A stretch of 64,000 nt of DNA. It comes from a virus. Where the stretch lies: positions 64,001 through 128,000 of the IMG/VR virus record IMGVR_UViG_3300033405_000004. One strand, given 5' to 3'. Positions 2,973-55,510 of this stretch are shown here, piece after piece. Each line of letters begins with the position of its first letter. The stretch's first letter is position 1. Both the position numbers and the translations under genes were made by a program. A model generated the notes under the pieces. That model was not told the origin of the DNA and ran no database searches. It worked only from the letters and a program-made list of their open reading frames with translations.

Positions 2973-3371
2973 ATGGCGCTGACACAGGCTGAGAAGGACG
3001 AAATCCAGAGGATGCTCGACGGCTTGCCCTGCAACGAGCACGGGCGCCTGAGCGAGGAGATGAGGTCCGAGCTGATCGGCTATCGGGAGACCATGCAGAC
3101 CCTCGCCAAGGCCATGGAGCGCCTCAGTCTCGTGGTGGTCGGCGACGACGAGCTCAAGATCGTCGGCCTGGGCCAGCGGGTGCAGCAGGTCGAGGGGGCG
3201 CAGAATAAGCTTCGGGAGGACGTGGAGAGGCGGTGGCAGCGGGACGACATCCAGCGCACCAAGATCGTCTTCTTCGTGATCGGGGCGGCTGCCGTGATGA
3301 ACGCCGCCTTCCGCCTCGTGGCATGGGTCGCCGGCCTTCTCGGCCTGGGCGGCATCCCCGGCCTTCATTAG
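2973..3371 (+). CDS. coiled-coil protein with C-terminal transmembrane segment
   Basis: Start set by TACTTAC-N3-ATG; hydrophobic C-terminus. Confidence 0.6.
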   Translation: MALTQAEKDEIQRMLDGLPCNEHGRLSEEMRSELIGYRETMQTLAKAMERLSLVVVGDDELKIVGLGQRVQQVEGAQNKLREDVERRWQRDDIQRTKIVFFVIGAAAVMNAAFRLVAWVAGLLGLGGIPGLH

Positions 3372-42333: not shown

Positions 42334-43359
42334 TCAGTTGTGTTGTGTTGTGCTGGTTGGTGCTGCGCTGTTCGGCGCTGTGCTAGCTGGTTCGTCCGGG
42401 TCCGGGTCTGGCTCGGAAAGCAGGCACTCCGCCCACAGGATGGCGTCGCCCAGGGCCGACCAGAACGCCATCGGGTGCCTCACCGGCGACCTGGCCTCGA
42501 AGTCGGCCTCGCGGTGGCCGTAGTGCGCGAGCACGCGCCGCAGCACGTCGGGGAGGATCTTCTCCCGCTCGCGGCGCCACTCGTCCCTGTCCCGCCCCGC
42601 CTGCGCGACCCGGTGCCGGTGTCGCTTCAGCTCGTCGCTGTCGCGGGTCGGCGCTTCGAGCCAGCGCCGGGTGTAGGTCGGCTCGGTCGAGAGCCAGCGC
42701 GGGTCCAGCGCCAGCTCCTGGGCGTTGTAGAGGCTGTTTACGGCCCCCTCCCCCCACTTCTGGCGGTGGCCCACCACCCACCTCGCCGCCAGCCATTCGC
42801 TGGCTGCCAGTGCGCGGGTGGCGTCCTCGGTCGGCCCGACCATCGAGAGGAGCGTCGTCATGTCGAACACGCCGTAGCGGCCAGCCGCTGCCTGCCGGTA
42901 CATCTCGACGTTCTTCTTGGCGGCCGGGCCGAGCAGCATGCGCGCGTGGAACCTGCGCCCCGGGCTGCCCTCGTTCGTGTCGCGGAACGCCATCATCGCC
43001 GCGAAGATGTAGAGCCGGAGCGTGATGCCGTCCCTGCGCAGGCCCGCGCGGAGGCGGCGCCCCTGTAGCTGGGTCATGCGGGCCGGCGCCCTCTTGAAGA
43101 CCTGGCGGTAGCACGAGGCGTAGGTGCCGAGCACGTCCTCCCGGTCGGGGTCGCCGCTGTCCAGCTGCGCCACCGGCCCCAGGCTGAACGCCAGGCGGCT
43201 CAGCGGCACCCTGCCCGCCCGCGAGCCCGTGGCTTTGAGGCAGCGGGCCTCGTGGGGGCAGGTCCTGCACTTCGGGTCCGCGCCGTCGTGCTCCAGCGCA
43301 AAGCACGGCAGGGGCGCCGGCGGCGCCGGGCGCCGCATGAACTGGGTTTGTTCGGGCAC
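42334..43359 (-). CDS. hypothetical replication-cluster protein with N-terminal Cys motif
   Basis: CF.....D..C..C....C; located between helicase and polymerase. Confidence 0.7.
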   Translation of the reverse strand: MPEQTQFMRRPAPPAPLPCFALEHDGADPKCRTCPHEARCLKATGSRAGRVPLSRLAFSLGPVAQLDSGDPDREDVLGTYASCYRQVFKRAPARMTQLQGRRLRAGLRRDGITLRLYIFAAMMAFRDTNEGSPGRRFHARMLLGPAAKKNVEMYRQAAAGRYGVFDMTTLLSMVGPTEDATRALAASEWLAARWVVGHRQKWGEGAVNSLYNAQELALDPRWLSTEPTYTRRWLEAPTRDSDELKRHRHRVAQAGRDRDEWRREREKILPDVLRRVLAHYGHREADFEARSPVRHPMAFWSALGDAILWAECLLSEPDPDPDEPASTAPNSAAPTSTTQHN

Positions 43360-43392
43360 GCGATGGGAAGAACTCGTTCTTAGACCCCGCAG

Positions 43393-46300
43393 ATGGAACC
43401 CAAGCGGTCAAAGGCCCGGAAGCCCACGGTCCCGAAGTTCGTTCGCGACCTGATGGCGGCGAGGGAGGCGGGCGGCAAGCTGCTCGCGGGCGACGCCTCG
43501 CCCATCTGCCAGAAGTGCGGCCTGAACGAGTGCGGGGCGCGGCAGCCCTACGTCAAGTTCCACGGCGCGGAGGACCCGCTGCTCACCGTCGTCTTCGACT
43601 CCATCTCCAGGCGCGAGGACGACGCCGACGAGATCGCCGTGGAGGGCTCGGCCAACGGGTTGCTCCGTAAGGTGCTGGAGCACGAGGCCAAGGATCTCGG
43701 CGTCGACTTGGGGCGCGTGCGGTGGGTTGCCACGACGCGCTGTGCTAACCGGCGGGACGGGAAGAAGGTCAACTACAAGACGCACGGCAACTGGTGCCGC
43801 TACTTCGCCGTGCAGGACCTCCGCAGGCGCCCGCCCGCCGTCGTGATGCCCGTCGGCTCGACCGCCCTGGCTATGTTCTCGCACAAGGCCAGCGCCTACA
43901 ACTGGGCGGGCAAGGTGCTTAACTGGCGCGGCTGGCCGGACGGCTGGCTCGTCGACAAGGCCTTCGCGGAGGGCCACCCGTTCTTCGGGCCGAGGCCGGC
44001 GGAGTCCGAGCGCCGCCCCATGGTGCCGGTGCAGGCGCCGCGGGTCGTCTACATGACGCAGAACCCGCAGGAGAAGGCGCGCTGGATTCGCCACATCCGC
44101 CGGGCGCTGGAGCTCGTCGTCCACGGGGCGCAGGCCCCGAGCTACGACCGCCCGTGGTTCCGCCTGCTGGAGACGCCGGAGGAGGTCGAGGCCGCCCTCG
44201 ACGCCATCCCCGGCGGGGTCTCGCTCACCTACGACTCCGAGACCACCGGCCTGCTCGCCTTCCTGAACGGGGCCGCCATCGTCTTCATGATGTTCCGGTA
44301 CAAGCTGCCGGACGGCGCGCCCGTGGCGATCGCCTTCCCCTGGGACTACGAGGGCAGCCCGCTCAGGCCGCACATCAGGCGGCTCACCCCGCGCGTCCTC
44401 TCGACCATGTACCGGACCAAGCTCAACGGTCACAACCTGGGCTTCGACGTGATCTACGCCTTCGCGACCCTGGAGGGGGCCAGCTTGTCGAAGCTGACTG
44501 CGGCGATGGACTGCGACACGCGGCACCTCATCTACACTTACCGGCAGACCAACGAGTCGCTCGGCTTGGAGCGCGTCGCCTACGACTGGTGCCCCGACAT
44601 GGCCGGGTATGAGGAGGCCTTTGAGCTCCTCAAGCAGTCCGAGCCAACCCTGCTCGATCCCGCCGCGGGCGAGGGCGGCCACTACGCGAAGTGCCCGCGC
44701 GAGCTCTGGCCGACGCACTTCCTGCCGTACGTCTTCGGCGACGTCGAGGTCGCCGCCGGGACGCGCGAGTCCACGCTGGCGAAGCTCAGGGAGGCGCGCT
44801 CCTACATGTTCCCCCTCGCCGACCCGGCGCACCTCGGTCGCTTCCGCCTCTACAAGCCGCTGCACCGGCTCCAGACCTACCGGCGCATCATGCTGCCCAG
44901 CCAGCGGGTGCTCACCCGGCTCATGGGCCGGGGCATGTTCGTCGACGTGGACGAGCTGGAGCACCAGGAGGACACCTTCCCCAAGATGATCGTGGCGGCC
45001 CGCGCCAAGCTCCGCCTGGTCGACGAGCGCATCGTCAAGTGGTGCCAGGCCCAGGAAGCCACCGTCCCCGACTGGAAGCTCGACTTGGAGGACCGTGACC
45101 AGCTCAAGACCATCCTCTTCGAGATCCTCAACCTCCCGGTGAAGCGGCTCACCGAGACAGGCATCCGGCTCCTTGGCGAGGACCTGGCTGAGGTGTCGAG
45201 GGAGGACCAGTTCAAGTACGCCGCCATCGACCGGTACACGCTCAACGGCCTCGCCGCTGAGTTCCCGAACCCCCTGAAGCCCGACGAGAGCTTGCTCAAG
45301 CCGCTCCAGGACTACCGCAAGCTCTACAAGGCCTACACCACCTACGTGCGCTCCATGCGCAACCTGTTCAGCAAGGGCGTCGACAAGAAGGAGCGCGAGA
45401 AGGAGCAGTACCTCATGCCCGACTACTGCGTCCACCCGACCTTCAACCAGTGCGGCACCCGATCGGGCCGGCTCAGCTCCAGCCAGCCCAACGCCCAGCA
45501 GCTCCCCAAGGACTCCATCGTGAAGCGGTTCTACACCTCCCGCTTCGGCGAGCGCGGTTGCATCTACCAGGCCGACCTGTCGCAGATCGAGCTGCGCTTG
45601 CTCGCCGCGGCCAGCGGCGACCCCCTCATGGTCAAGACCTACCGGGAGGGCACGGACATCCACTCGACCACCATGTCGCGGATCTTCAAGCTGCCTTACG
45701 AGCAGTGCGTGAAGGAGTGGGTCTCCAAGCTCCAGGCGGAGGGTCGGGACGCCGAGGCCAAGAAGATGGAGCTGTGGCGCCGCATCGCCAAGACCACCAA
45801 CTTCCTCACGTCGTACGGCGGCGGCGCTTACGGCCTCCAGACCACCCTGGCCGAGGATGCCGTCTACCTCCCCATCGAGGAGTGTGAGCGCATCGTCGAG
45901 GCCCTCTTCGACACCTACCCCAAGCTGCGCGAGCATATCGGCGTCTACAAGCAGTTCATCCTCGACCACGGCCTGGCCGTCTCCATGTCGGGTCGCATCC
46001 GGGTCTTTGAGGACGTCTACTCCGACGACCGCGGCGTCCTCAGCAAGGCCCTTCGCTCCGGCTACAACCACCTGATCCAGTCCACCGCCTCCGACATGAT
46101 GCTTACCTGCATGGCCGCCATCGAGGCCGCCATGCGCCAAGCCGGGCTGGAGTCCATTCTCGTTTCTACCGTCCACGACTCCATCGTCACCGACGCCGTC
46201 CGGGCCGAGCTGCCGCAGGTTCACGCCATCACCATGGAGGTCATCAACAACATCCCCGACGTGCTGGAGCTCATGTGGGGGCCGGGCTTCAACTCCGACT

Positions 46301-46464: not shown

Positions 46465-47100
46465 ATGGCACAGGAAATCCGCGACTTCAAGGCCCACCCT
46501 AATTTGCTTTGGGACGTCATCACCCGCCAGGCGGGTACGCTCGGCAAGGCCATGCTGGAGGGCGTCTGCAACTCCTGCGACGCCGGGGCAACGCGGATTG
46601 ACGTCTCGCTCGGTGCGGACAGCTTCTCCATCGTGGACAACGGGCGCGGCTTCCGCGACAAGGCGGAGATCACGCAGGTCTTCGAGATCTTCGGCCAGCC
46701 GCACGCCGAGGGCGACGCCCTGTACGGGTGGTTCCGCATGGGGCGCGGCCAAATCATGGCCTTCGCCAAGACGGTGTGGCGGTCCAACGGCTCGGTCATG
46801 CGGGTCGACATCAAGAAGGACGGCCTGCGCTACGAGTACGCCGAGCTCAGCCCGCCCGAACCCGGCTGCCGCATCGACGGCATGCTCTACGAGCCGCTCA
46901 GCCTCGGTCAGGTTCGGATGGTCGCCGACGAGGTCGTTCGCGACTGCCGCTACATTGCGGCCCAGCTTTTCATCAACGGCGCGCAGGTGAACGACGACCC
47001 CGCCAAGAAGAAGTGGCCCCTTGAAGGCCCCGACTTTTGGGGGCGGGTTAGCCCCGGCGGCGGGCGGATAACTTTTTTTGTAAACAGTCTTAGTTACGGT
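46465..47100 (+). pseudogene. GHKL (HATPase_c) ATPase N-terminal fragment, open in frame into the next gene
   Basis: E...NS.DA, DNGRGF and G.F.MG motifs; sequence turns AT-rich and intergenic-like at about 47035-47100. Confidence 0.6.
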
Positions 47101-47682
47101 ATGAAATTAGTTAGTGGAAACATAGACATAAGCGTGCCTGATGGGGTGTCCGGCGGATGGCGCGTGGAGACGTTCACGGTCTCCCAGCAGGAGTCCGACT
47201 TCACGCGTCTGCGTGCCGTCTGTGGCCATCCGGCCGAGTTCGTGTCGCCCGGCAGCTACAAGCGCCTCATGCACGGGGGCACTGTGGTGATGTCGAACAC
47301 GCCGCATGAAATCCTGACCCACCGGCCCGTGATCAGGATGGCGCGGGGGCGCGTGCTCCTTAACGGCCTTGGCCTGGGCGTGTGCCTCAAGGTCATCCTT
47401 GCGGACGCGGAGGTTGAGCACGTCACTGTGGTCGAGAAGGAGGCTGACGTGCTCAGGCTGGTCGGCCCGACCTACGAGTGCCCTCGCCTCACGCTGATCC
47501 ACGGCGACGCCTATACCCGCGAGCTTCGTCGGGGCGAGCGGTACGATGTCGCCTGGCACGACATCTGGAACGAGATTTGTAGCGACAACGCCGACGATAT
47601 GCGGCGGTTGATGCGCAAGTACGCCCGGCGGGCGGCCTGGCAGGGCTGCTGGTGCTACTACGAGACGCTCCGGGATCGGTAA
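47101..47682 (+). CDS. class I SAM-dependent methyltransferase (spermidine-synthase-like)
   Basis: VLLNGLGLG, VTVVE, HGDA and YD..WHDIW; has its own TAGTTAC-N3-ATG. Confidence 0.8.
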   Translation: MKLVSGNIDISVPDGVSGGWRVETFTVSQQESDFTRLRAVCGHPAEFVSPGSYKRLMHGGTVVMSNTPHEILTHRPVIRMARGRVLLNGLGLGVCLKVILADAEVEHVTVVEKEADVLRLVGPTYECPRLTLIHGDAYTRELRRGERYDVAWHDIWNEICSDNADDMRRLMRKYARRAAWQGCWCYYETLRDR

Positions 47683-47683
47683 C

Positions 47684-48154
47684 ATGAAGCGGTTGCTGGA
47701 GAACCTCACCGGCCCGTGGGCCTGCGCCAAACGGAACGAGATCCGAAGGCTCCTCCTGCTGGAGCGCGAGCGCCGTGCGCTCGGCGACCTGGAGGGGGCC
47801 AAGGCGGCCGGGGAGAAGGCCCGCCGCATGCGCTCCTTTTATGAGGCCGTCAAGCCCCCCAGGAAGCGCCGCAAAGCCGAGCCGAGGCCGGAGGACCCGG
47901 CGCTCGCCCCGGAGAGGGAGGAGCTGATGGCCCTGCTCACGGCTAGGGAGCGGGAGGGCCGCGGGGCCGTCCGCTACTGGCAGCTGATCGACGGCGCCGC
48001 CAAGCGGGCCGGCGCCCGCGGCAAGGCCGAGATGAAGCGGGTGCGCCTCCGCTACATGTCCGCGTTGGGGGAGCTCCTCAGGGCGGGCCGCGCCGTGCGC
48101 GTCTGCAGGCGGTTCGTCCTTTCCGTGGGCGCGATCAGCGCAACCGGAAGATGA
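47684..48154 (+). CDS. basic hypothetical protein
   Basis: Coupled ORF. Confidence 0.55.
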   Translation: MKRLLENLTGPWACAKRNEIRRLLLLERERRALGDLEGAKAAGEKARRMRSFYEAVKPPRKRRKAEPRPEDPALAPEREELMALLTAREREGRGAVRYWQLIDGAAKRAGARGKAEMKRVRLRYMSALGELLRAGRAVRVCRRFVLSVGAISATGR

Positions 48155-48743
48155 GGTTGTCGGGCGCCCGGTGGACCATGTCGTAGCCCTTGAACAGCTG
48201 CCTGAACTGCTCTTCGAACGAGGCCGGCCCCACCCTGAACTCCACGCACCACGCGGCCGGGGTGAACCGCTCGGCCAGCGCGGTCGCGACCTCTAGGCTG
48301 GTGCCCTCCGTGTCGACGTTGATGAAGTCGGGCTGCCCGCCCCCGAAGGAGGAGTGGTACAGCCTCTCGATTTCGGCCACGCCCACCGGCGAGACGTACA
48401 CCGGGATGTAGTTGCCGACGTGCGCCCAGATCCGGCGGAACGCCTCGGAGGTCGTCGAGACGGCGTCGTCGGTCATCTCCAGCTTAATCAGGCCCCCGCC
48501 ATCGCCCGGGACGACGGCCGCGTTCACCAGCCGGAGCCTAGGGTTGTGGCCGTGCAGGGCGGCGAGGTCGTGGAACGGCTGCGCGGACGGCTCGACGAGT
48601 ATGCCGCCCCACCCGTCCTCGATCAGCTTCAGGGTGTTGGAGAAAGTGCGGCCGTTGAAGGCCCCCACGTCGATGAGCGTCCCCTCGGCCTTCCCCTCGA
48701 AAATCCCGAGGATGTGCTTTTCTTCGTCGTATTGGCTGTACAT
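48135..48743 (-). CDS. FkbM-family methyltransferase
   Basis: YSQ..E, IDVGA.NG...SNT..L...GW.GILVEP and DF..VD.EG. Confidence 0.9.
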   Translation of the reverse strand: MYSQYDEEKHILGIFEGKAEGTLIDVGAFNGRTFSNTLKLIEDGWGGILVEPSAQPFHDLAALHGHNPRLRLVNAAVVPGDGGGLIKLEMTDDAVSTTSEAFRRIWAHVGNYIPVYVSPVGVAEIERLYHSSFGGGQPDFINVDTEGTSLEVATALAERFTPAAWCVEFRVGPASFEEQFRQLFKGYDMVHRAPDNLIFRLR

Positions 48744-48981
48744 CTTGGGTTAAGAACAGGGTGCGCCGGCGGCTTGTCGATCCAGACCTGCCAGCGCGGC
48801 CCGAAGGCGGCTTTGAAGCTGGAGAGGGCCGTGGTTATCGAGTTGAAGTGGTAGCTGTAGCCGTGGCCGGGGCGGCTGCGGGCCCGCATCAGCTCCACGG
48901 GGTCGGGGTCGCCGTCGAGCTGGGCCATTATCTTGCAGAAGGAGGTGGGAGTTGGTGGGTTCATTTCAGTTCTAAGAACGC

Positions 48982-50217
48982 ATGCCAGAAACTGTTTCGA
49001 TTTCGGACGGCACGGGTAAGCGGGCGCCGAGCGCCAGCTGGAAGATCGTGAGCTTCAGCAAGCCGGTCCTCTGGACGAGGACCGAGGAGGAGGTCTGGAT
49101 GCTGCACCCCCTGCGGCGGTACATCCTCAACGCGGACCAGCTCGAAAGGCTCATGCCCTACATAGAGACCATGTCGGAGCTCAAGGGGTCGCGCCACTAC
49201 CGGCCCCTGGTGGCCGGGGCGGCCCTCGCGGGCACCCGCATCCTCGTCTACCGGTACGCCGACCGCGGCGTCGGCGACCACCTCTTCATGACCGGGCCGC
49301 TGAACTACCTCCGCCACGTCTCCGGCAACAGCGCCGACATCACCATGTACGGCCTGACCGACCGCCACCAGATCCTCGCCTTCCACCCCGCCCTCAAGCA
49401 CGAGGCCGTCCTGGCCGGGCCGGTGCACTACGACGACCTCCAGTACTACCACTGGCACTGGTTCGTCGAGACCGCCACCGAGTACGACGAGGAGTTCGAC
49501 CAGCTCAACGTCTACGACTCGCTCTACCGGCAGATGGGGGTGGACCCGACCACCGTCGACGTCACCTTCAAGCGGCCCTCGATGAAGCTCAACGATAAGG
49601 ACTACAGGGACCTCGACCAGCTGTACTACTTCGTCTACTGCAACCGCAAGCTCGACCTGCGCCTCACGCCCTACTACGTGGTCGCCCCGACCTCCTATGC
49701 CAGCCTGCGCTCCGCCCCCTACGGGCTGTGGCTGGCCGTCATCGCCGAGCTGGCCAAGGTCAGGCCCGTGGTCGCCGTCGGGCGCCCGGGCAAGGGCCGC
49801 ATGCCCGACACCGACCTGTCGTTCGGCCAGTTCGTGGGCGACCTGAACAAGATCCCCAACACGGTGAACCTGATGAGCGACATCCCCATCCGCACCGTCG
49901 CCGCCCTGGTCTCACGCGCCATCTGCGCCGTCACCCTCGACGCCGGCATCCTCTACGTCGCCCAGGCCCTCGGCGTGCCCGCCGTCTCGCTCTGGGGCAC
50001 CCACGCCCCCGCCGTCCGCCTGCTGTACGACAAGAAGTACATGGACCTGGCCGTCTGGAACCGCGAGGCCTGCCACAACTCGCCCTGCTTCTCCTACGCC
50101 GTCTTCCCGAAGGCGAAGTGCCCCCGCGGCGAGCTCCAGAAGGTCTGCGAGCCGTTGGCCGCCGTGAAGCCGTCCGACGTCATCGCCAAGGTCACCGAGG
50201 CCGAAAAAGCCCGCTAG
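48982..50217 (+). CDS. glycosyltransferase family 9 (heptosyltransferase-like)
   Basis: RGVGD.L and VTLDAG..YVA.ALGVPAVSLWG; C..C tail. Confidence 0.85.
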   Translation: MPETVSISDGTGKRAPSASWKIVSFSKPVLWTRTEEEVWMLHPLRRYILNADQLERLMPYIETMSELKGSRHYRPLVAGAALAGTRILVYRYADRGVGDHLFMTGPLNYLRHVSGNSADITMYGLTDRHQILAFHPALKHEAVLAGPVHYDDLQYYHWHWFVETATEYDEEFDQLNVYDSLYRQMGVDPTTVDVTFKRPSMKLNDKDYRDLDQLYYFVYCNRKLDLRLTPYYVVAPTSYASLRSAPYGLWLAVIAELAKVRPVVAVGRPGKGRMPDTDLSFGQFVGDLNKIPNTVNLMSDIPIRTVAALVSRAICAVTLDAGILYVAQALGVPAVSLWGTHAPAVRLLYDKKYMDLAVWNREACHNSPCFSYAVFPKAKCPRGELQKVCEPLAAVKPSDVIAKVTEAEKAR

Positions 50218-50224
50218 TTAGCCG

Positions 50225-51391
50225 ATGAGCTACTGCGACATCATCTGCGGCGAGGCGCTCGCCGAGCTGCGCAAGCTGCCCCCTGATTCGGCGCACGCCT
50301 GCGTGACGGACCCGCCGTACGGCCTGAAGTTCATGGGCAAGGACTGGGACCGCGGCGTGCCTGGGTCGGCTTACTGGGCCGAGGCCCTGCGCGTCTGTAG
50401 GCCCGGCGCCCACCTCCTCGCGTTCGGCGGCACGCGCACCTTCCACCGGCTCGCCTGCGCCATCGAGGACGCCGGGTGGGAGATCCGCGACACCCTGATG
50501 TGGGTCTACGGCTCCGGCTTCCCGAAGTCGCTCGACGTGGGCAAGGCCTTCGACAAGGCGGCGGGGGCGAAGGGTGAGGTCGTGGGCGTGCAGAAGGTCG
50601 ACGTGGGGATGCAGTCGGGCCACATGCACAGCGGCAGGCGGTCGGAGGTGGTCGAGCGCGAGGTGCGGGCGCCCGCGACCGACGAGGCCAGGGAGTGGCG
50701 CGGCTGGGGCACGGCCCTCAAGCCCGCCTGGGAGCCGATCTTGCTCGCCCGGAGGCCCCTCGACGGGACCGTGGTGGAGAACGTGCGGAAGTGGGGCTGT
50801 GGGGCGCTGAACGTCGACGGGTGTAGGGTGGGCGAGGAGAGCACCGTTCGCACGAGGAGGGACAGCCTGAGCGCGTCTGGCTGGGCGAGCGTGAACCGCT
50901 CGCCAGTGGGCGGGTCGGAGGCGGGCCGCTGGCCCGCGAACGTGGTGCACGATGGCAGCGAGGAGGTTCTGGCGGGCTTCCCCCGCACTAGGAGCGGCAG
51001 CGATACCGTCAAGCGGGAGAGCGGGGCCGACCGCGACGGCAACCGGGGCGCGGCCTACGGGGCCGAGAGCCGGCCCGCCGGGTCGCCGATGGTCTTCTAC
51101 GGCGACGAGGGCTCCGCCGCCCGCTTCTTCTACTGCGCTAAGCCGAGCCCCTCCGAGCGGGAGGGCAACCCCCACCCGACCGTCAAGCCGCTGGCCCTGA
51201 TGGAGTGGCTGCTGCGACTCGTCTCCAGGGAGGGCGACACCGTGGTCGACCCGTTCGCCGGGAGCGGCACCACGGGCGTCGCGGCCTACCGGCTGGGGCG
51301 GAACGCCGTTCTCATAGACAAGAGCCGCGCCGACTACGAGACCATGAAGGCCCGCATGGCCAAGGCCGGGGCGGCCCTCGAACCCATTTGA
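50225..51391 (+). CDS. DNA N6-adenine/N4-cytosine methyltransferase (beta class)
   Basis: TDPPY, HPTVKP and DPFAGSGTT. Confidence 0.93.
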   Translation: MSYCDIICGEALAELRKLPPDSAHACVTDPPYGLKFMGKDWDRGVPGSAYWAEALRVCRPGAHLLAFGGTRTFHRLACAIEDAGWEIRDTLMWVYGSGFPKSLDVGKAFDKAAGAKGEVVGVQKVDVGMQSGHMHSGRRSEVVEREVRAPATDEAREWRGWGTALKPAWEPILLARRPLDGTVVENVRKWGCGALNVDGCRVGEESTVRTRRDSLSASGWASVNRSPVGGSEAGRWPANVVHDGSEEVLAGFPRTRSGSDTVKRESGADRDGNRGAAYGAESRPAGSPMVFYGDEGSAARFFYCAKPSPSEREGNPHPTVKPLALMEWLLRLVSREGDTVVDPFAGSGTTGVAAYRLGRNAVLIDKSRADYETMKARMAKAGAALEPI

Positions 51392-51393
51392 AG

Positions 51394-52695
51394 ATGTGGA
51401 TACTCCCGCGCCACTTACACACCTCAGCCTTTGTTCGGGATACGAGGGCATTGGTCTCGGACTTGAGCGAGCTGTCCCAGGCCTGCGCACAGTCGCTCTT
51501 TGTGAGATCGAAGCCTTTGCCTGCGCGAACCTGGTCGCAAAAATGGAGGCGGGACTCCTGGACCCGGTTCCTCTCTGGACGGATCTGCGCACCTTCCCAT
51601 TCACAGAGTTTCACGGACTCGTGGGCGTCCTGTCAGGCGGCTTCCCTTGCCAGCCCTTCAGCGCCTGCGGCAGGCAGGCCGCCGACCACGACCCCCGGCA
51701 CCTCTTCCCCGCCATCCTCGAAGGGGTCGAGCGGTGCCAGCCCGCCCTCGTCTTCCTTGAGAACGTGCCCGGGATTGTCTCCGCCAAGCTCAAGGGGGAT
51801 GGCTGGTCGGACCCCGCCGGGACCCCCGTTCTGCTCCATGTCCTCCGAGAGCTGGAGCGCGTGGGTTACCGCGTCGCGTGCGGACTATTCAGCTCGGCTG
51901 AAACGGGCGGCAGCCACCGGCGCGAGCGCATCTATATCCTGGCCCACCGCCTCGGCGCGGGACTGGAAGGATTCGCCCGGCATGTCGACGGAGCGGCGGA
52001 GGGGCGTGGACCAGCTGGCGAGGGTCGTCTACCACCAAGTCCCGCCGGGCCCGGGGGGCGGCAGCTCTGGTGGGAGCCCCCCAGGACTCTGGCAAACGCC
52101 AAGCACGGACAGCTTTCGAAGCCGGGGCCGGGACCGGAAGGACGAGATGGGCCTGGACCAGCAGGTGAGGTACGGCCCGGCGAGGTGGGCGACGCCCAGG
52201 GCGGAGGACGCGGAGAGCGCGGGCCGCAGGGTCGAGCGGGGGACGGCGGACACGCTGACGGCCCAGGTGAGGGAAATGTGGCCGACGCCGAAGGTCATGG
52301 ACGCGGAGCGGTCGTCGCTCCAGACGCAGGCGAAGTACGTGGCCCGGACCGGGCGGCAGACGAACCTGAGGGCGGCGGTGGGCATGAGCCTGTGGCCGAC
52401 GCCGAGGACGCCGACGGGCGGGGCGGAGTCGGCGGGGAGGAAGCAGGAGCTGGGGCGGGACGCGTCGGGCGGGGGCGACCTGACGAGCGAGGTGAGGAGG
52501 TGGCCGACGCCGATCCACGGCTGCGCGGAGGCGAGCCACGGCCAGATCAGCGGCCAGTATCGCGACGCGATGACGGCGGCGGGGGTCCCCGCGGGGAGGC
52601 TGAACCCGCGGTGGGTGGAGGTCTTGATGAGGGTGCCGGTGGGCTGGTGCCTGCCGAGCTGTTCGTATCCGTGGACTCCCGGACCGACGAGCTGA
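51394..52695 (+). CDS. overlapping-frame beta polypeptide of the C5-methyltransferase (WxTP repeats plus motif-IX-like end)
   Basis: 433-codon open frame with six W-x-T-[P/A] repeats and RLNPRWVEVLM.VP.GW; ATG overlaps the alpha GTG. Confidence 0.7.
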   Translation: MWILPRHLHTSAFVRDTRALVSDLSELSQACAQSLFVRSKPLPARTWSQKWRRDSWTRFLSGRICAPSHSQSFTDSWASCQAASLASPSAPAAGRPPTTTPGTSSPPSSKGSSGASPPSSSLRTCPGLSPPSSRGMAGRTPPGPPFCSMSSESWSAWVTASRADYSARLKRAAATGASASISWPTASARDWKDSPGMSTERRRGVDQLARVVYHQVPPGPGGGSSGGSPPGLWQTPSTDSFRSRGRDRKDEMGLDQQVRYGPARWATPRAEDAESAGRRVERGTADTLTAQVREMWPTPKVMDAERSSLQTQAKYVARTGRQTNLRAAVGMSLWPTPRTPTGGAESAGRKQELGRDASGGGDLTSEVRRWPTPIHGCAEASHGQISGQYRDAMTAAGVPAGRLNPRWVEVLMRVPVGWCLPSCSYPWTPGPTS

Positions 52696-52778
52696 GGCTC
52701 CTGGGCAACGGAGTCGACCCGGTCGTGGCTGAGCACGCGTTCAGGACGCTGCTGGCCCGGCTGCTGGAGGGGCCGTGA
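51396..52778 (+). CDS. DNA C5-cytosine methyltransferase, alpha polypeptide (motifs I-VIII and X)
   Basis: SLCSG.EG, GGFPCQPFS, ENVPG, HRRERIYI and LGNGV; no motif IX in this frame. Confidence 0.9.
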   Translation: MDTPAPLTHLSLCSGYEGIGLGLERAVPGLRTVALCEIEAFACANLVAKMEAGLLDPVPLWTDLRTFPFTEFHGLVGVLSGGFPCQPFSACGRQAADHDPRHLFPAILEGVERCQPALVFLENVPGIVSAKLKGDGWSDPAGTPVLLHVLRELERVGYRVACGLFSSAETGGSHRRERIYILAHRLGAGLEGFARHVDGAAEGRGPAGEGRLPPSPAGPGGRQLWWEPPRTLANAKHGQLSKPGPGPEGRDGPGPAGEVRPGEVGDAQGGGRGERGPQGRAGDGGHADGPGEGNVADAEGHGRGAVVAPDAGEVRGPDRAADEPEGGGGHEPVADAEDADGRGGVGGEEAGAGAGRVGRGRPDERGEEVADADPRLRGGEPRPDQRPVSRRDDGGGGPRGEAEPAVGGGLDEGAGGLVPAELFVSVDSRTDELRLLGNGVDPVVAEHAFRTLLARLLEGP

Positions 52779-53980
52779 TCGCCGAGGTCTGCGTGGACAC
52801 GGCGTACGTGCAGGACACTGGGGTCTACTACCGGGTGGTCTCCATGGCGCCGGGCGCGATCGTGGTCTCCGAGCGGTGCGGCGACGGCGCCGGCCTGGAG
52901 ATGCCGCTGGAGGAGTTCAAGCGGCGGTTCGCCGCCCTGGACCTGCAGGAGGAGGCCAAGCTGCGGTGGGCGGAGAAGGCCCTCAGGAGGAGGGGCCTCC
53001 CGGCCGACCGGGAGACGGTGAGGGGCATCTGGCGGCGCCCGCTGGAGGACCCCCCGGCGCCCGAAGTCGACAAGGCTAGCCAGCCGCCCGACGGCCCGCC
53101 GCGGCGGGAGAGGGAGGAGTCCGACCAGTCCGCGGGCGGCCGTGGCGGCGCTAGGTCGCCGGACATTGGCGTGCTGGTGACGCCCTCCAAGTCGGACGAC
53201 CTGGCCGGCCTCGTGCTGAGCGAGTCCACCCGCCAGGAGCTGGACGACGCCCTGCGCCTCATCCTCCGGCGCGAGGACTTCGAGGCCGTCTGGAGGCTCG
53301 GCGAGATCTTCCCGTTCAAGAACCGCTGCGCCCTGAACTTCTACGGCGAGCCTGGCACCGGCAAGACCACGGCGGCGCGCGGCCTGGCGCTGCGCCTGGG
53401 GCGCCAGCTCTACCAGGTCGACTACGCCAAGCTCACCAGCAAGTGGGTCGGCGAGACCGACAAGTACATCAAGTTCGCCTTCGAATACGCGCACCGGGCC
53501 ATGGCGGTCCTCTTCTTCGACGAGGCCGACAGCGTCCTCAGCCGGCGCATGACCGACCCCGACCAGTCGTGGGCCGTCGCCCTCAACCAGCAGCGGAACG
53601 TCCTGATGCAGGAGCTTGACAGGTTCGACGGCATCGTGGTCTTCTCCACCAACCTCTTCTCCGCCTACGACTCGGCTGTCGTGCGCCGGATCTCCCACCA
53701 CGTGGAGTTCCCCATGCCCGACCAAGGCATGAGACTTCGCCTGTTCCGGCGTCACCTGCCTAACCCGGACCGGGCCGTGCTCAGCCAGGCGCAGTGGGAC
53801 CGCCTGGCCCTCGACAGCCGCGGCCTCTCCGGGGGCGACATCCTGAACGCCTGCGTCAACGCCATGGTGCGGGCGAGCGCCCCGGCCGACGTCGCCGACT
53901 GGAAGCTCACCTTCAAGCTGCTCGACGACGAGGCCAGGAGGGTGCTGCGCACCAAGCTCGCCGCGGCGGGCCATAGTTAG
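52775..53980 (+). CDS. AAA+ ATPase
   Basis: GEPGTGKT, SKWVGE..K, LFFDEADS, STN, D.A..RR and LSGGDI. Confidence 0.9.
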   Translation: MIAEVCVDTAYVQDTGVYYRVVSMAPGAIVVSERCGDGAGLEMPLEEFKRRFAALDLQEEAKLRWAEKALRRRGLPADRETVRGIWRRPLEDPPAPEVDKASQPPDGPPRREREESDQSAGGRGGARSPDIGVLVTPSKSDDLAGLVLSESTRQELDDALRLILRREDFEAVWRLGEIFPFKNRCALNFYGEPGTGKTTAARGLALRLGRQLYQVDYAKLTSKWVGETDKYIKFAFEYAHRAMAVLFFDEADSVLSRRMTDPDQSWAVALNQQRNVLMQELDRFDGIVVFSTNLFSAYDSAVVRRISHHVEFPMPDQGMRLRLFRRHLPNPDRAVLSQAQWDRLALDSRGLSGGDILNACVNAMVRASAPADVADWKLTFKLLDDEARRVLRTKLAAAGHS

Positions 53981-54709: not shown

Positions 54710-55510
54710 TTAAACGTCCGGGACGGCAAGCTCACACCGTCGGCAGATTGGGTCCCCACTGGCGTCGTCCCGCTGCGCCTCGCGGACGCGCCGGTAGGCC
54801 TCACCCCTGAACAGTTCGGGGTAGCCCGTCGCGGTCAGGTTGCCGAGGATGTGCTCCATCCCGTAGTCCATGCAGCACAGGACCACGTCCCCGTTCGGGA
54901 GCAGGACGTTGTGGTCCAGCTCCGGGCCGCATGCCGAGCACTTGATCCTGCCAGCCCGCCAGGGAACCGCCTTCCCCTTCAGGTTGCCGGCCCGGCCTAC
55001 GATGCCGCCCAGGTCGCTCGGCACATCCCGGCCCAGCGCCTCCCGCACCCTGGGGTGGAGCCTGCCGATCACCGTGACGTGGCTCCCGGCGGGGTGGGCC
55101 AGCGCGAGCCGCAGCACCGCCAGGTAGTCGTCCGTGACCTCCAGCTTCATCATGCCGTCCGCGTCGGGCAGGTGCACGCAGAGGCACAGGAGCGGCACGT
55201 GCCAAATGCGGGCCAGGTCCGCCGGCTTCATGCCGAAGGTCGTGGTGTAGACGCCGACCCGGTAGCCCGAGTCGTGGGCGTGCAGCAGCATGTCCGTGGC
55301 CCGCGGGTTCAGCCATGGCTCGGCCATCCCGGCGAACAGGATCTCCACCCCCTTGGGGACGCCGGCCAGGCATCGCGCGAAGGTGTCGAAGGACATCTCT
55401 CGGGGGCCGCCCACCCTCGCGTAGGCGCGCACGTGGGTCGCCTGCGGGCAGTAGTCGCAGGCCATCCTGCAGCCCACCGTCGTGGACACTTCGAGGTTGG
55501 GTTTCGGCAC
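54710..55510 (-). CDS. radical SAM/SPASM domain protein
   Basis: CRMACDYC; SPASM-like PNGDV.LCC.D...LGN...C..C. Confidence 0.9.
   Translation of the reverse strand: MPKPNLEVSTTVGCRMACDYCPQATHVRAYARVGGPREMSFDTFARCLAGVPKGVEILFAGMAEPWLNPRATDMLLHAHDSGYRVGVYTTTFGMKPADLARIWHVPLLCLCVHLPDADGMMKLEVTDDYLAVLRLALAHPAGSHVTVIGRLHPRVREALGRDVPSDLGGIVGRAGNLKGKAVPWRAGRIKCSACGPELDHNVLLPNGDVVLCCMDYGMEHILGNLTATGYPELFRGEAYRRVREAQRDDASGDPICRRCELAVPDV

Follow-up and report, generated by a model that had tools for sequence, protein, structure and literature searches.

Cytosine-5 (C5) DNA methyltransferases built from two chains have been characterized before, and the heterodimeric M.EcoHK31I of E. coli (YGGCCR; Lee, Kam and Shaw, 1995, as cited in PMC2836561 and PMC3404938) is the described enzyme closest to the gene presented here. 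As these two papers describe it, M.EcoHK31I has an alpha chain with motifs I-VIII, motif X and what is predicted to be its target-recognition domain (TRD), together with a small beta chain that contains motif IX only and is encoded in another frame, wholly within the alpha gene; the enzyme is active only when the chains associate. M.AquI (CYCGRG), as outlined in PMC3404938, is a two-subunit C5-methyltransferase split after motif VIII. Here we describe a gene at positions 51394-52778, plus strand, of a 64,000-nucleotide (nt) stretch of viral DNA (the window, bases 64001-128000 of IMG/VR record IMGVR_UViG_3300033405_000004), in which two almost fully overlapping frames are both open. Judging from comparison with its relatives, we consider it likely that the two frames are co-extensive coding sequences of one gene, which specifies a two-chain DNA cytosine-5 methyltransferase in a large phage; the record, 157,322 bp long and ~68% GC as a whole (70% in the window itself), also encodes baseplate, major head and protease proteins, UvsX-like and DnaB-like proteins and a family A polymerase. 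The initial annotation of this stretch had cited M.EcoHK31I as precedent for a motif-IX beta chain in an alternative frame, as PMC2836561 indeed describes, and the best reading of the family is as an extended form of that enzyme.

The two frames open at overlapping start codons. Positions 51394-51398 read ATGTG, such that ATG 51394 opens frame B and GTG 51396 opens frame A (plus strand, as for all features below unless stated otherwise). Frame A, which runs to TGA 52778 (51396-52778), would yield an alpha chain of 460 amino acids (aa) with motifs I-VIII, a variable middle and motif X; frame B, which runs to TGA 52695 (51394-52695), would yield a beta chain of 433 aa with a conserved N-terminal part, six WxTP units and a motif-IX-like end. 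Within frame A's open stretch no start codon precedes GTG 51396, and the open stretch of frame B reaches upstream as far as 51205; frame-B homologues share the same MWIL start, and the third frame has 15 stops across 51394-52778. The overlapping ATGTG with two long open frames, motifs I-VIII and X in one frame, and six WxTP units with a motif-IX-like LNPRWVEVLM in the other had all been read from this sequence in the initial annotation, and all are borne out. As in M.EcoHK31I, the second chain would lie in another frame of the same DNA, with motifs I-VIII and X on alpha and a motif-IX-like segment on beta. Compared by description only, the present gene differs in that its frames are co-extensive (433 and 460 codons) with starts two bases apart, and in that its beta frame carries the whole WxTP array as well as a conserved 180-aa N-terminal part.

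The PF00145 match of the frame A product is confined to aa 9-186, corresponding to profile positions 3-163 of 324 (E 1.6e-26), and the alpha profile matches M.HhaI at 1.8e-20 and M.HaeIII at 1.1e-17. This catalytic half (aa 1-186, 51396-51953) doubles as beta aa 1-186. Across 46 sequences, C85 of PCQ, E122-N123-V124, R176 and R178 are invariant, as are G437-N438-G439-V440 of motif X (GNxV), which is present in frame A as LRLLGNGVDPVV at the alpha C-terminal end (aa 429-460 plus the stop codon, 52680-52778). The alpha polypeptide itself lacks the variable region and motif IX; the WxTP array and LNPRWVEVLM occupy the +1 frame instead. The likeness to the monomeric PF00145 enzymes M.HhaI and M.HaeIII is one of catalytic core, whereas the small domain and motif IX lie outside the frame of the catalytic polypeptide. 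Between motifs VIII and X, alpha is rich in G, R, E and A, and had been regarded as Gly-rich filler. Most of it is indeed a shadow of beta (for example, its LGR..DG is the shadow of the motif-IX-like segment in frame B), but the description does not hold for alpha aa 223-233 (QLWWEPPRTLA, 52062-52094), an element conserved in the alignment of relatives, where the consensus of the alpha middle is WPxRPGExQxxWExPRV and Q223 is nearly invariant; its Q..WE.PR core (aa 223-230) is modelled against the beta motif-IX helix.

In frame B, the W-x-T-[PA] signature occurs at aa 183 (WPTA), 233 (WQTP), 265 (WATP), and 296, 334 and 370 (WPTP in all three), marking six units over 51940-52596 that begin at 51940, 52090, 52186, 52279, 52393 and 52501; L...V closes each of the first five. 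The array is followed by the motif-IX-like segment RLNPRWVEVLMRVPVGWC (beta aa 402-419, 52597-52650; RLNPRWVEVLMRVPVGW at aa 402-418), in which 45 sequences all have L403, N404, P405, V408, L411 and M412, although the third positions of these codons are free. Beta aa 231-419 match phrog_1008, a PHROG family named 'DNA methyltransferase' (E 1.3e-11). The GC content at third codon positions (GC3) tells which frame is primary: in the window it is 0.95 for frame B in the WxTP middle and 0.91 for frame A in the tail, the former indicating that frame B is the primary frame of the middle. Here the gene departs from M.EcoHK31I, whose TRD is on alpha and whose beta has motif IX only, because the region between motifs VIII and IX is primarily frame B, as judged by GC3 and by homologues.

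Whether two open frames mean anything in a genome of this composition cannot be judged from the window, where permutation of synonymous codons gives P values of 0.10 (frame B open over the catalytic half) and 0.23 (frame A open over the middle), neither of them significant, since third-position GC is ~0.95 in this genome and long alternative open reading frames (ORFs) are common at such values. The window alone being undecided, the comparison with relatives has to decide. A protein search with frame B aa 183-420 returned 673 matches, and ~40 of the best 120 also share the beta N-terminal 180 aa, aligned from residue 1 (MWILP...). A first relative (L001, 60% GC) likewise has two ORFs that are co-extensive, and its methylase core is in the -1 frame relative to beta. 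In this locus and in nearly all of 80 viral loci, whose contig GC ranges from 35 to 70%, the catalytic half lies in frame f and both parts of frame B in f+1, with motif X back in frame f in most. Bacterial and archaeal genomes show the same arrangement: of 80 loci retrieved through the beta motif, 78 have beta in the +1 frame with respect to the catalytic half, and in many it is co-extensive with alpha or nested within it. These genome loci span Verrucomicrobia, Planctomycetota, Paenibacillus and other Bacillota, Dehalococcoidia (Chloroflexi), Solirubrobacterales, Pseudomonadota and one Methanoregula metagenome-assembled genome (MAG). As side observations on these sources, the 2504-bp contig of the Methanoregula sp. 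MAG (L157), which has the +1 layout, is perhaps a virus or a binning artefact, and the source contig of one protein (P0024) is L086, Geminisphaera colitermitum.

A stop census of the viral loci, not conditioned on openness and with expectations from permutation of synonymous codons, shows how far both frames exceed chance. Over the catalytic half, 70 of 77 loci have a stop-free frame B where 5.5 such loci are expected, the stops numbering 16 rather than an expected 208.6; over the middle, 62 of 64 loci have a stop-free frame A where 1.6 are expected, the stops numbering 25 rather than 351, figures that overstate the number of independent observations because the loci are not phylogenetically independent. 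In the 50 loci having both frames open, the third frame has a mean of 18 stops. The dual-open layout extends to gene GC of 0.42-0.44, with two loci (L025 and L027) at 0.44, one of which has both frames open for 1.6 kb. These data bear directly on the idea that the layout is an artefact or a decayed gene, in which two compensating indels (from sequencing error or pseudogenization) would have arisen in an ordinary methylase gene and the second frame would be open merely through high GC. The window's own openness, being not significant by itself, would fit such an origin; the recurrence of both layout and start pair in ~80 viral loci and in 78 of the 80 genome loci, at gene GC as low as 0.42-0.44, makes it exceedingly improbable, and on the comparative data we reject a pseudogene or sequencing error as the explanation. 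Separately, dual-coded genes in low-GC phages have a much higher GC than their contigs (0.49 versus 0.37 in L020, 0.44 versus 0.35 in L025, and 0.50 versus 0.41 in L019), as would be expected if stops must be avoided in two frames.

Both frames are, furthermore, under selection at the amino-acid level. In a pairwise test over the catalytic half of 46 genes, restricted to pairs with less than 55% alpha identity, frame-B identity is 37% versus 24.6% in permutations kept free of stops (z 41), and third-position identity in frame A is 59% versus 41.6%. This can be followed codon by codon. Alpha E37 is always GAG (46/46), I38 always ATC (41/41) and E39 nearly always GAA (42/45), and these three codons spell R-S-K in frame B; P59 is CCT (44/46), F72 is TTT (44/44), G157 is GGT (43/43) and A167 is GCG (45/45), and L153 is written solely as TTG or CTG, giving frame B a W in 46 of 46. 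The codons of alpha PCQPFS vary freely. Beta W154, V158 and R168 are invariant or nearly so, with the overlapping alpha codons fixed. Because frame A codons are fixed site by site where beta residues are conserved, the N-terminal part of beta is not passive read-through. In the window, frame A has a GC3 of 0.75 in the catalytic half and 0.54 in the first 150 nt, compared to ~0.95 for the genome, so its synonymous sites there are not free. The initial annotation had named an unconserved beta frame among the grounds for abandoning the two-chain idea, and we find frame B open and selected across relatives, including in its N-terminal 180 aa, which had not figured in that annotation and whose conserved residues are enforced through synonymous sites of frame A.

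The adjacency of the two start codons is itself conserved. The start-region string ATGTGGATA is strongly conserved among relatives, and in 37 of 47 complete genes an ATG is followed by a GTG two bases on; the other complete genes use close pairs of GTG/GTG, TTG/GTG or ATG...ATG. In many loci these close pairs are the sole start codons of each frame's open stretch. A Shine-Dalgarno core precedes the pair in 32 of the 47 complete genes. In the window, an N6/N4 DNA methyltransferase gene lies immediately upstream (50225-51391; PF01555, E 7.9e-27), and its stop 2 nt before the ATGTG suggests coupled initiation.

With the start pair, the open frames and the selection in place, it is possible to weigh whether the gene might instead be recoded into one ordinary single-chain methyltransferase, by starting in frame A, shifting +1 into frame B after motif VIII and shifting -1 back into frame A after the motif-IX-like segment. 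Joining the frames A-B-A does give the canonical order of motifs I-VIII, variable region, IX and X, and some database proteins hop frames and stay open (P0109, which switches A, B, A, B). A recoded gene, however, needs neither a 5' start in frame B, nor an open frame B over the catalytic half, nor an open frame A over the middle, and all three are conserved; nor would it account for the amino-acid-level selection on the N-terminal part of beta. Programmed ribosomal frameshift genes differ in this respect from the present family, whose frames are both open end to end with their own starts and which lacks a canonical -1 slippery heptamer in the last 120 nt of frame B in all 47 loci (the search did not extend to +1 sites, which have no general signature). 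We therefore regard recoding as improbable. The frame-hopping called proteins (P0109 and P0052) may be indel errors or real variants; in the locus of the latter (L085:1405-2946), motifs I-II share the frame of the WxTP array, IX and X, and motifs IV-VIII are in an overlapping open stretch of 357 codons (1644-2717).

Natural variants of the layout offer another view of how the pieces could be divided. In five viral loci (L023, L026, L046, L052 and L063), it is the beta frame that contains motif X, and the ORF of alpha stops partway through the gene. In a phage contig of 38% GC (L021, 1870-3327), the catalytic half of alpha ends right after motif VIII (open stretch 1870-2469), the alpha linker holds 17 stops, and the WPSRPG...RVDRLRLLGNGVVP piece has an open stretch of its own (2980-3327) that includes an in-frame ATG; beta is intact throughout, and the whole looks like a natural three-piece version. 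Together, the beta-frame motif X of five loci and the split alpha in the sixth point to separate chains. The five loci also bring the family closer to M.AquI, which is a natural split with motifs I-VIII on one chain and the distal variable region on the other, and which puts IX and X on its second chain as these variants do, their two frames nonetheless overlapping. The window gene departs from M.AquI in having motif X on alpha and in that its chains fully overlap in the DNA; the alpha chain of M.AquI also carries part of the variable region.

We next consider how the two chains might fit together. The heterodimer modelling that the initial annotation had proposed was run with alpha and beta 140-433 on custom alignments and gave an interaction prediction score from aligned errors (ipSAE) of 0.86 (0.87, 0.86 and 0.86 in the individual runs) versus 0.00 for the best of three controls; this mark is reached by 58 of 80 solved complexes and by 2 of 110 mismatched pairs, counts that are rough since custom alignments were used. 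The runs share at least 31% of their contacts, and the partner has a predicted local distance difference test (pLDDT) score of 43-48. In the model, beta 400-430 packs on alpha 432-443, 226-234 and 16-54, and beta 144-191 packs on alpha 144-177; alpha 226-234 contacts beta 404-407, and the motif-IX-like segment (beta 402-419) has its lowest-error contacts with alpha 432-443. A long helix is predicted at beta aa 151-178 (51844-51927), encoded over alpha motifs VII-VIII (AlphaFold2 pLDDT ~95), and in the complex model it is part of the interface with alpha 144-177.

Several observations weigh against a two-chain enzyme, in addition to the undecided openness of the window and the shared ancestry of the loci noted above. 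A profile search of PDB with beta gave chance-level matches only (E above 0.5), and beta folded alone with AlphaFold2 has a mean pLDDT of 51, a low confidence from which helices 151-178 and 405-411 are excepted. Since beta has no detectable match to solved methyltransferases, the labels 'motif IX' and 'TRD' rest on position, the name of phrog_1008 and the complex model. At beta position 413 (52630-52632), the last residue of LMG in the motif-IX-like segment, the window copy has Arg, whereas Gly is found in at least 90% of relatives. Translation of either frame is something we infer from sequence, as are assembly, enzyme activity and a role of the WxTP units in DNA target choice. Lastly, because the chains resemble the halves of a split gene, the score of the complex may reflect a likeness to solved single-chain methyltransferases; the model thus supports a geometry rather than binding of this particular copy.

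Some of the same observations would suit a beta chain that is translated and yet is no subunit at all, being instead an independent or regulatory protein overprinted on a methylase gene with which it simply co-occurs: its sequence matches no solved methyltransferase, its predicted fold in isolation is for the most part of low confidence, and its N-terminal part belongs to no known family (a Pfam scan of beta found none at E 0.1). Alpha, however, lacks any detectable match to the C-terminal half of PF00145, the half which holds the variable region and motif IX in single-chain enzymes. Beta sits at exactly this missing place and matches a PHROG named for DNA methyltransferases, it also carries motif X in the five variant loci, and the model puts beta 400-430 against alpha motif X, at 0.86 versus 0.00 for the best control. 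We consequently give a non-subunit beta little chance. The two-chain enzyme suggested in the initial annotation stands as the best reading, given that both frames are kept open, the adjacent starts are conserved and both frames show amino-acid-level selection across diverged loci.

The WxTP array invites comparison with a third group of enzymes. The multispecific C5-methyltransferases of Bacillus phages SPR, phi3T and rho11s are orphan single chains with experimentally mapped TRDs, and they resemble the present family in having tandem short units between motifs VIII and IX that are reshuffled between related phages. Their units are mapped TRDs, whereas the WxTP units of the window are without detected similarity to solved structures. 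In a census of 165 beta-type proteins with 875 units, the number of units per protein ranges from 1 to 13 with a median of 5. Single-linkage clustering put 740 of the 875 units in one cluster, and a stricter typing was used instead, which gives recurrent unit types: WPTPRTITGGAESAERKQELGR..SGGGDL in 73 proteins, W.TPRAEDSESCGNHPGA.DSLTGA in 66, WQTPATDSFRSRGGDRKDEMGLDQQ in 56 and WPTASARDWKDSPGM in 29. Typed units occur about once per protein, in 140 distinct arrangements among the 165 proteins; in unit-type letters, the array of the window reads.ECB.A. (where a dot denotes a unit without a common type). These counts support an array that is modular, expandable and reshuffled between relatives, at the position of the target-recognition region, in agreement with its earlier description as a modular, expandable repeat. 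Target recognition by the units, multispecific methylation and a role against restriction, which the initial annotation also proposed, would go beyond what these counts support. A literature search found no description of a WxTP two-frame methylase family, beyond M.EcoHK31I and M.AquI.

Returning to the two-chain enzyme, a plausible course of events can be outlined from these data. Ribosomes loading at one site would start either at ATG 51394 or at GTG 51396; in the window this loading is probably linked to the end of translation of the N6-methylase gene two bases upstream, most relatives having an upstream Shine-Dalgarno sequence instead. Those starting at the GTG would produce alpha, comprising the large domain for S-adenosylmethionine binding and catalysis (motifs I-VIII), a variable linker consisting mostly of an out-of-frame shadow of beta, the Q..WE.PR element, which is short but conserved, and the helix of motif X, which would close the large domain. 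Those starting at the ATG would produce beta, comprising a conserved N-terminal part ending in the long helix at aa 151-178, six WxTP units placed where single-chain enzymes have their target-recognition region, and the motif-IX-like helix (LNPRWVEVLM). The chains would then join via beta 144-191 with alpha 144-177 and via beta 400-430 with alpha 226-234 and 432-443, rebuilding the usual two-domain enzyme. Perhaps the WxTP units are independent target-recognition modules on a separate chain, one DNA motif per type, and the array a set of cassettes that phages reshuffle to change or widen the sites they methylate; the second frame and the shared start site would keep the chains linked in expression, and the N-terminal part of beta would be a dual-coded assembly domain, so that the gene would rank among the longest co-extensive overlaps on one strand, with selection on both frames, known from prokaryotic viruses. 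We offer this cassette reading of the array tentatively, and think it less likely than not.

Downstream of the gene, an AAA ATPase gene (52775-53980; PF00004, E 2.3e-22) begins with a GTG that overlaps the alpha stop codon (GTGA). The surroundings of the two methylases also include putative modification functions, namely a HATPase_c_3-like protein at 46465-47682, an FkbM-type methyltransferase at 48135-48743 (minus strand), a glycosyltransferase-9-like protein at 48982-50217 and a radical SAM/SPASM protein at 54710-55510 (minus strand). The genes at 46465-50217 and 54710-55510 around the methylases may form a cluster for nucleic-acid or surface modification.

The family also reaches into cultured phages. 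A tblastn search of a cultured-phage collection with window beta aa 180-420 gave no match; the beta of a low-GC relative (P0124) matches 39 cultured phage records, within methylase genes, and the hosts in the names of these phages are Klebsiella, Salmonella, Cronobacter, Escherichia and Kosakonia. We checked the annotation fully in one of them, Klebsiella phage LASTA (MT251347; L083:912-1736), where only alpha is annotated, as a 274-aa 'DNA cytosine methyltransferase' (43163-43987 of MT251347), and where an unannotated +1 ORF within the annotated gene (L083:970-1659, 229 codons) contains one WPTP unit and LNPDLSRWLMGLPVEW (LNP..WLMGLP). Many metagenome records, for their part, call beta alone, as a 'hypothetical protein'. 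One chain goes unannotated because gene callers report one frame per stretch. If the two-chain reading is true, a class of cytosine methylases that is very widespread in phages and prophages is half-described, and their specificity would not be predictable from the annotated chain alone. The family would likewise present a many-fold replicated natural case of long same-strand dual coding, in which selection can be measured in both frames, as well as a natural split-methylase scaffold with exchangeable units.

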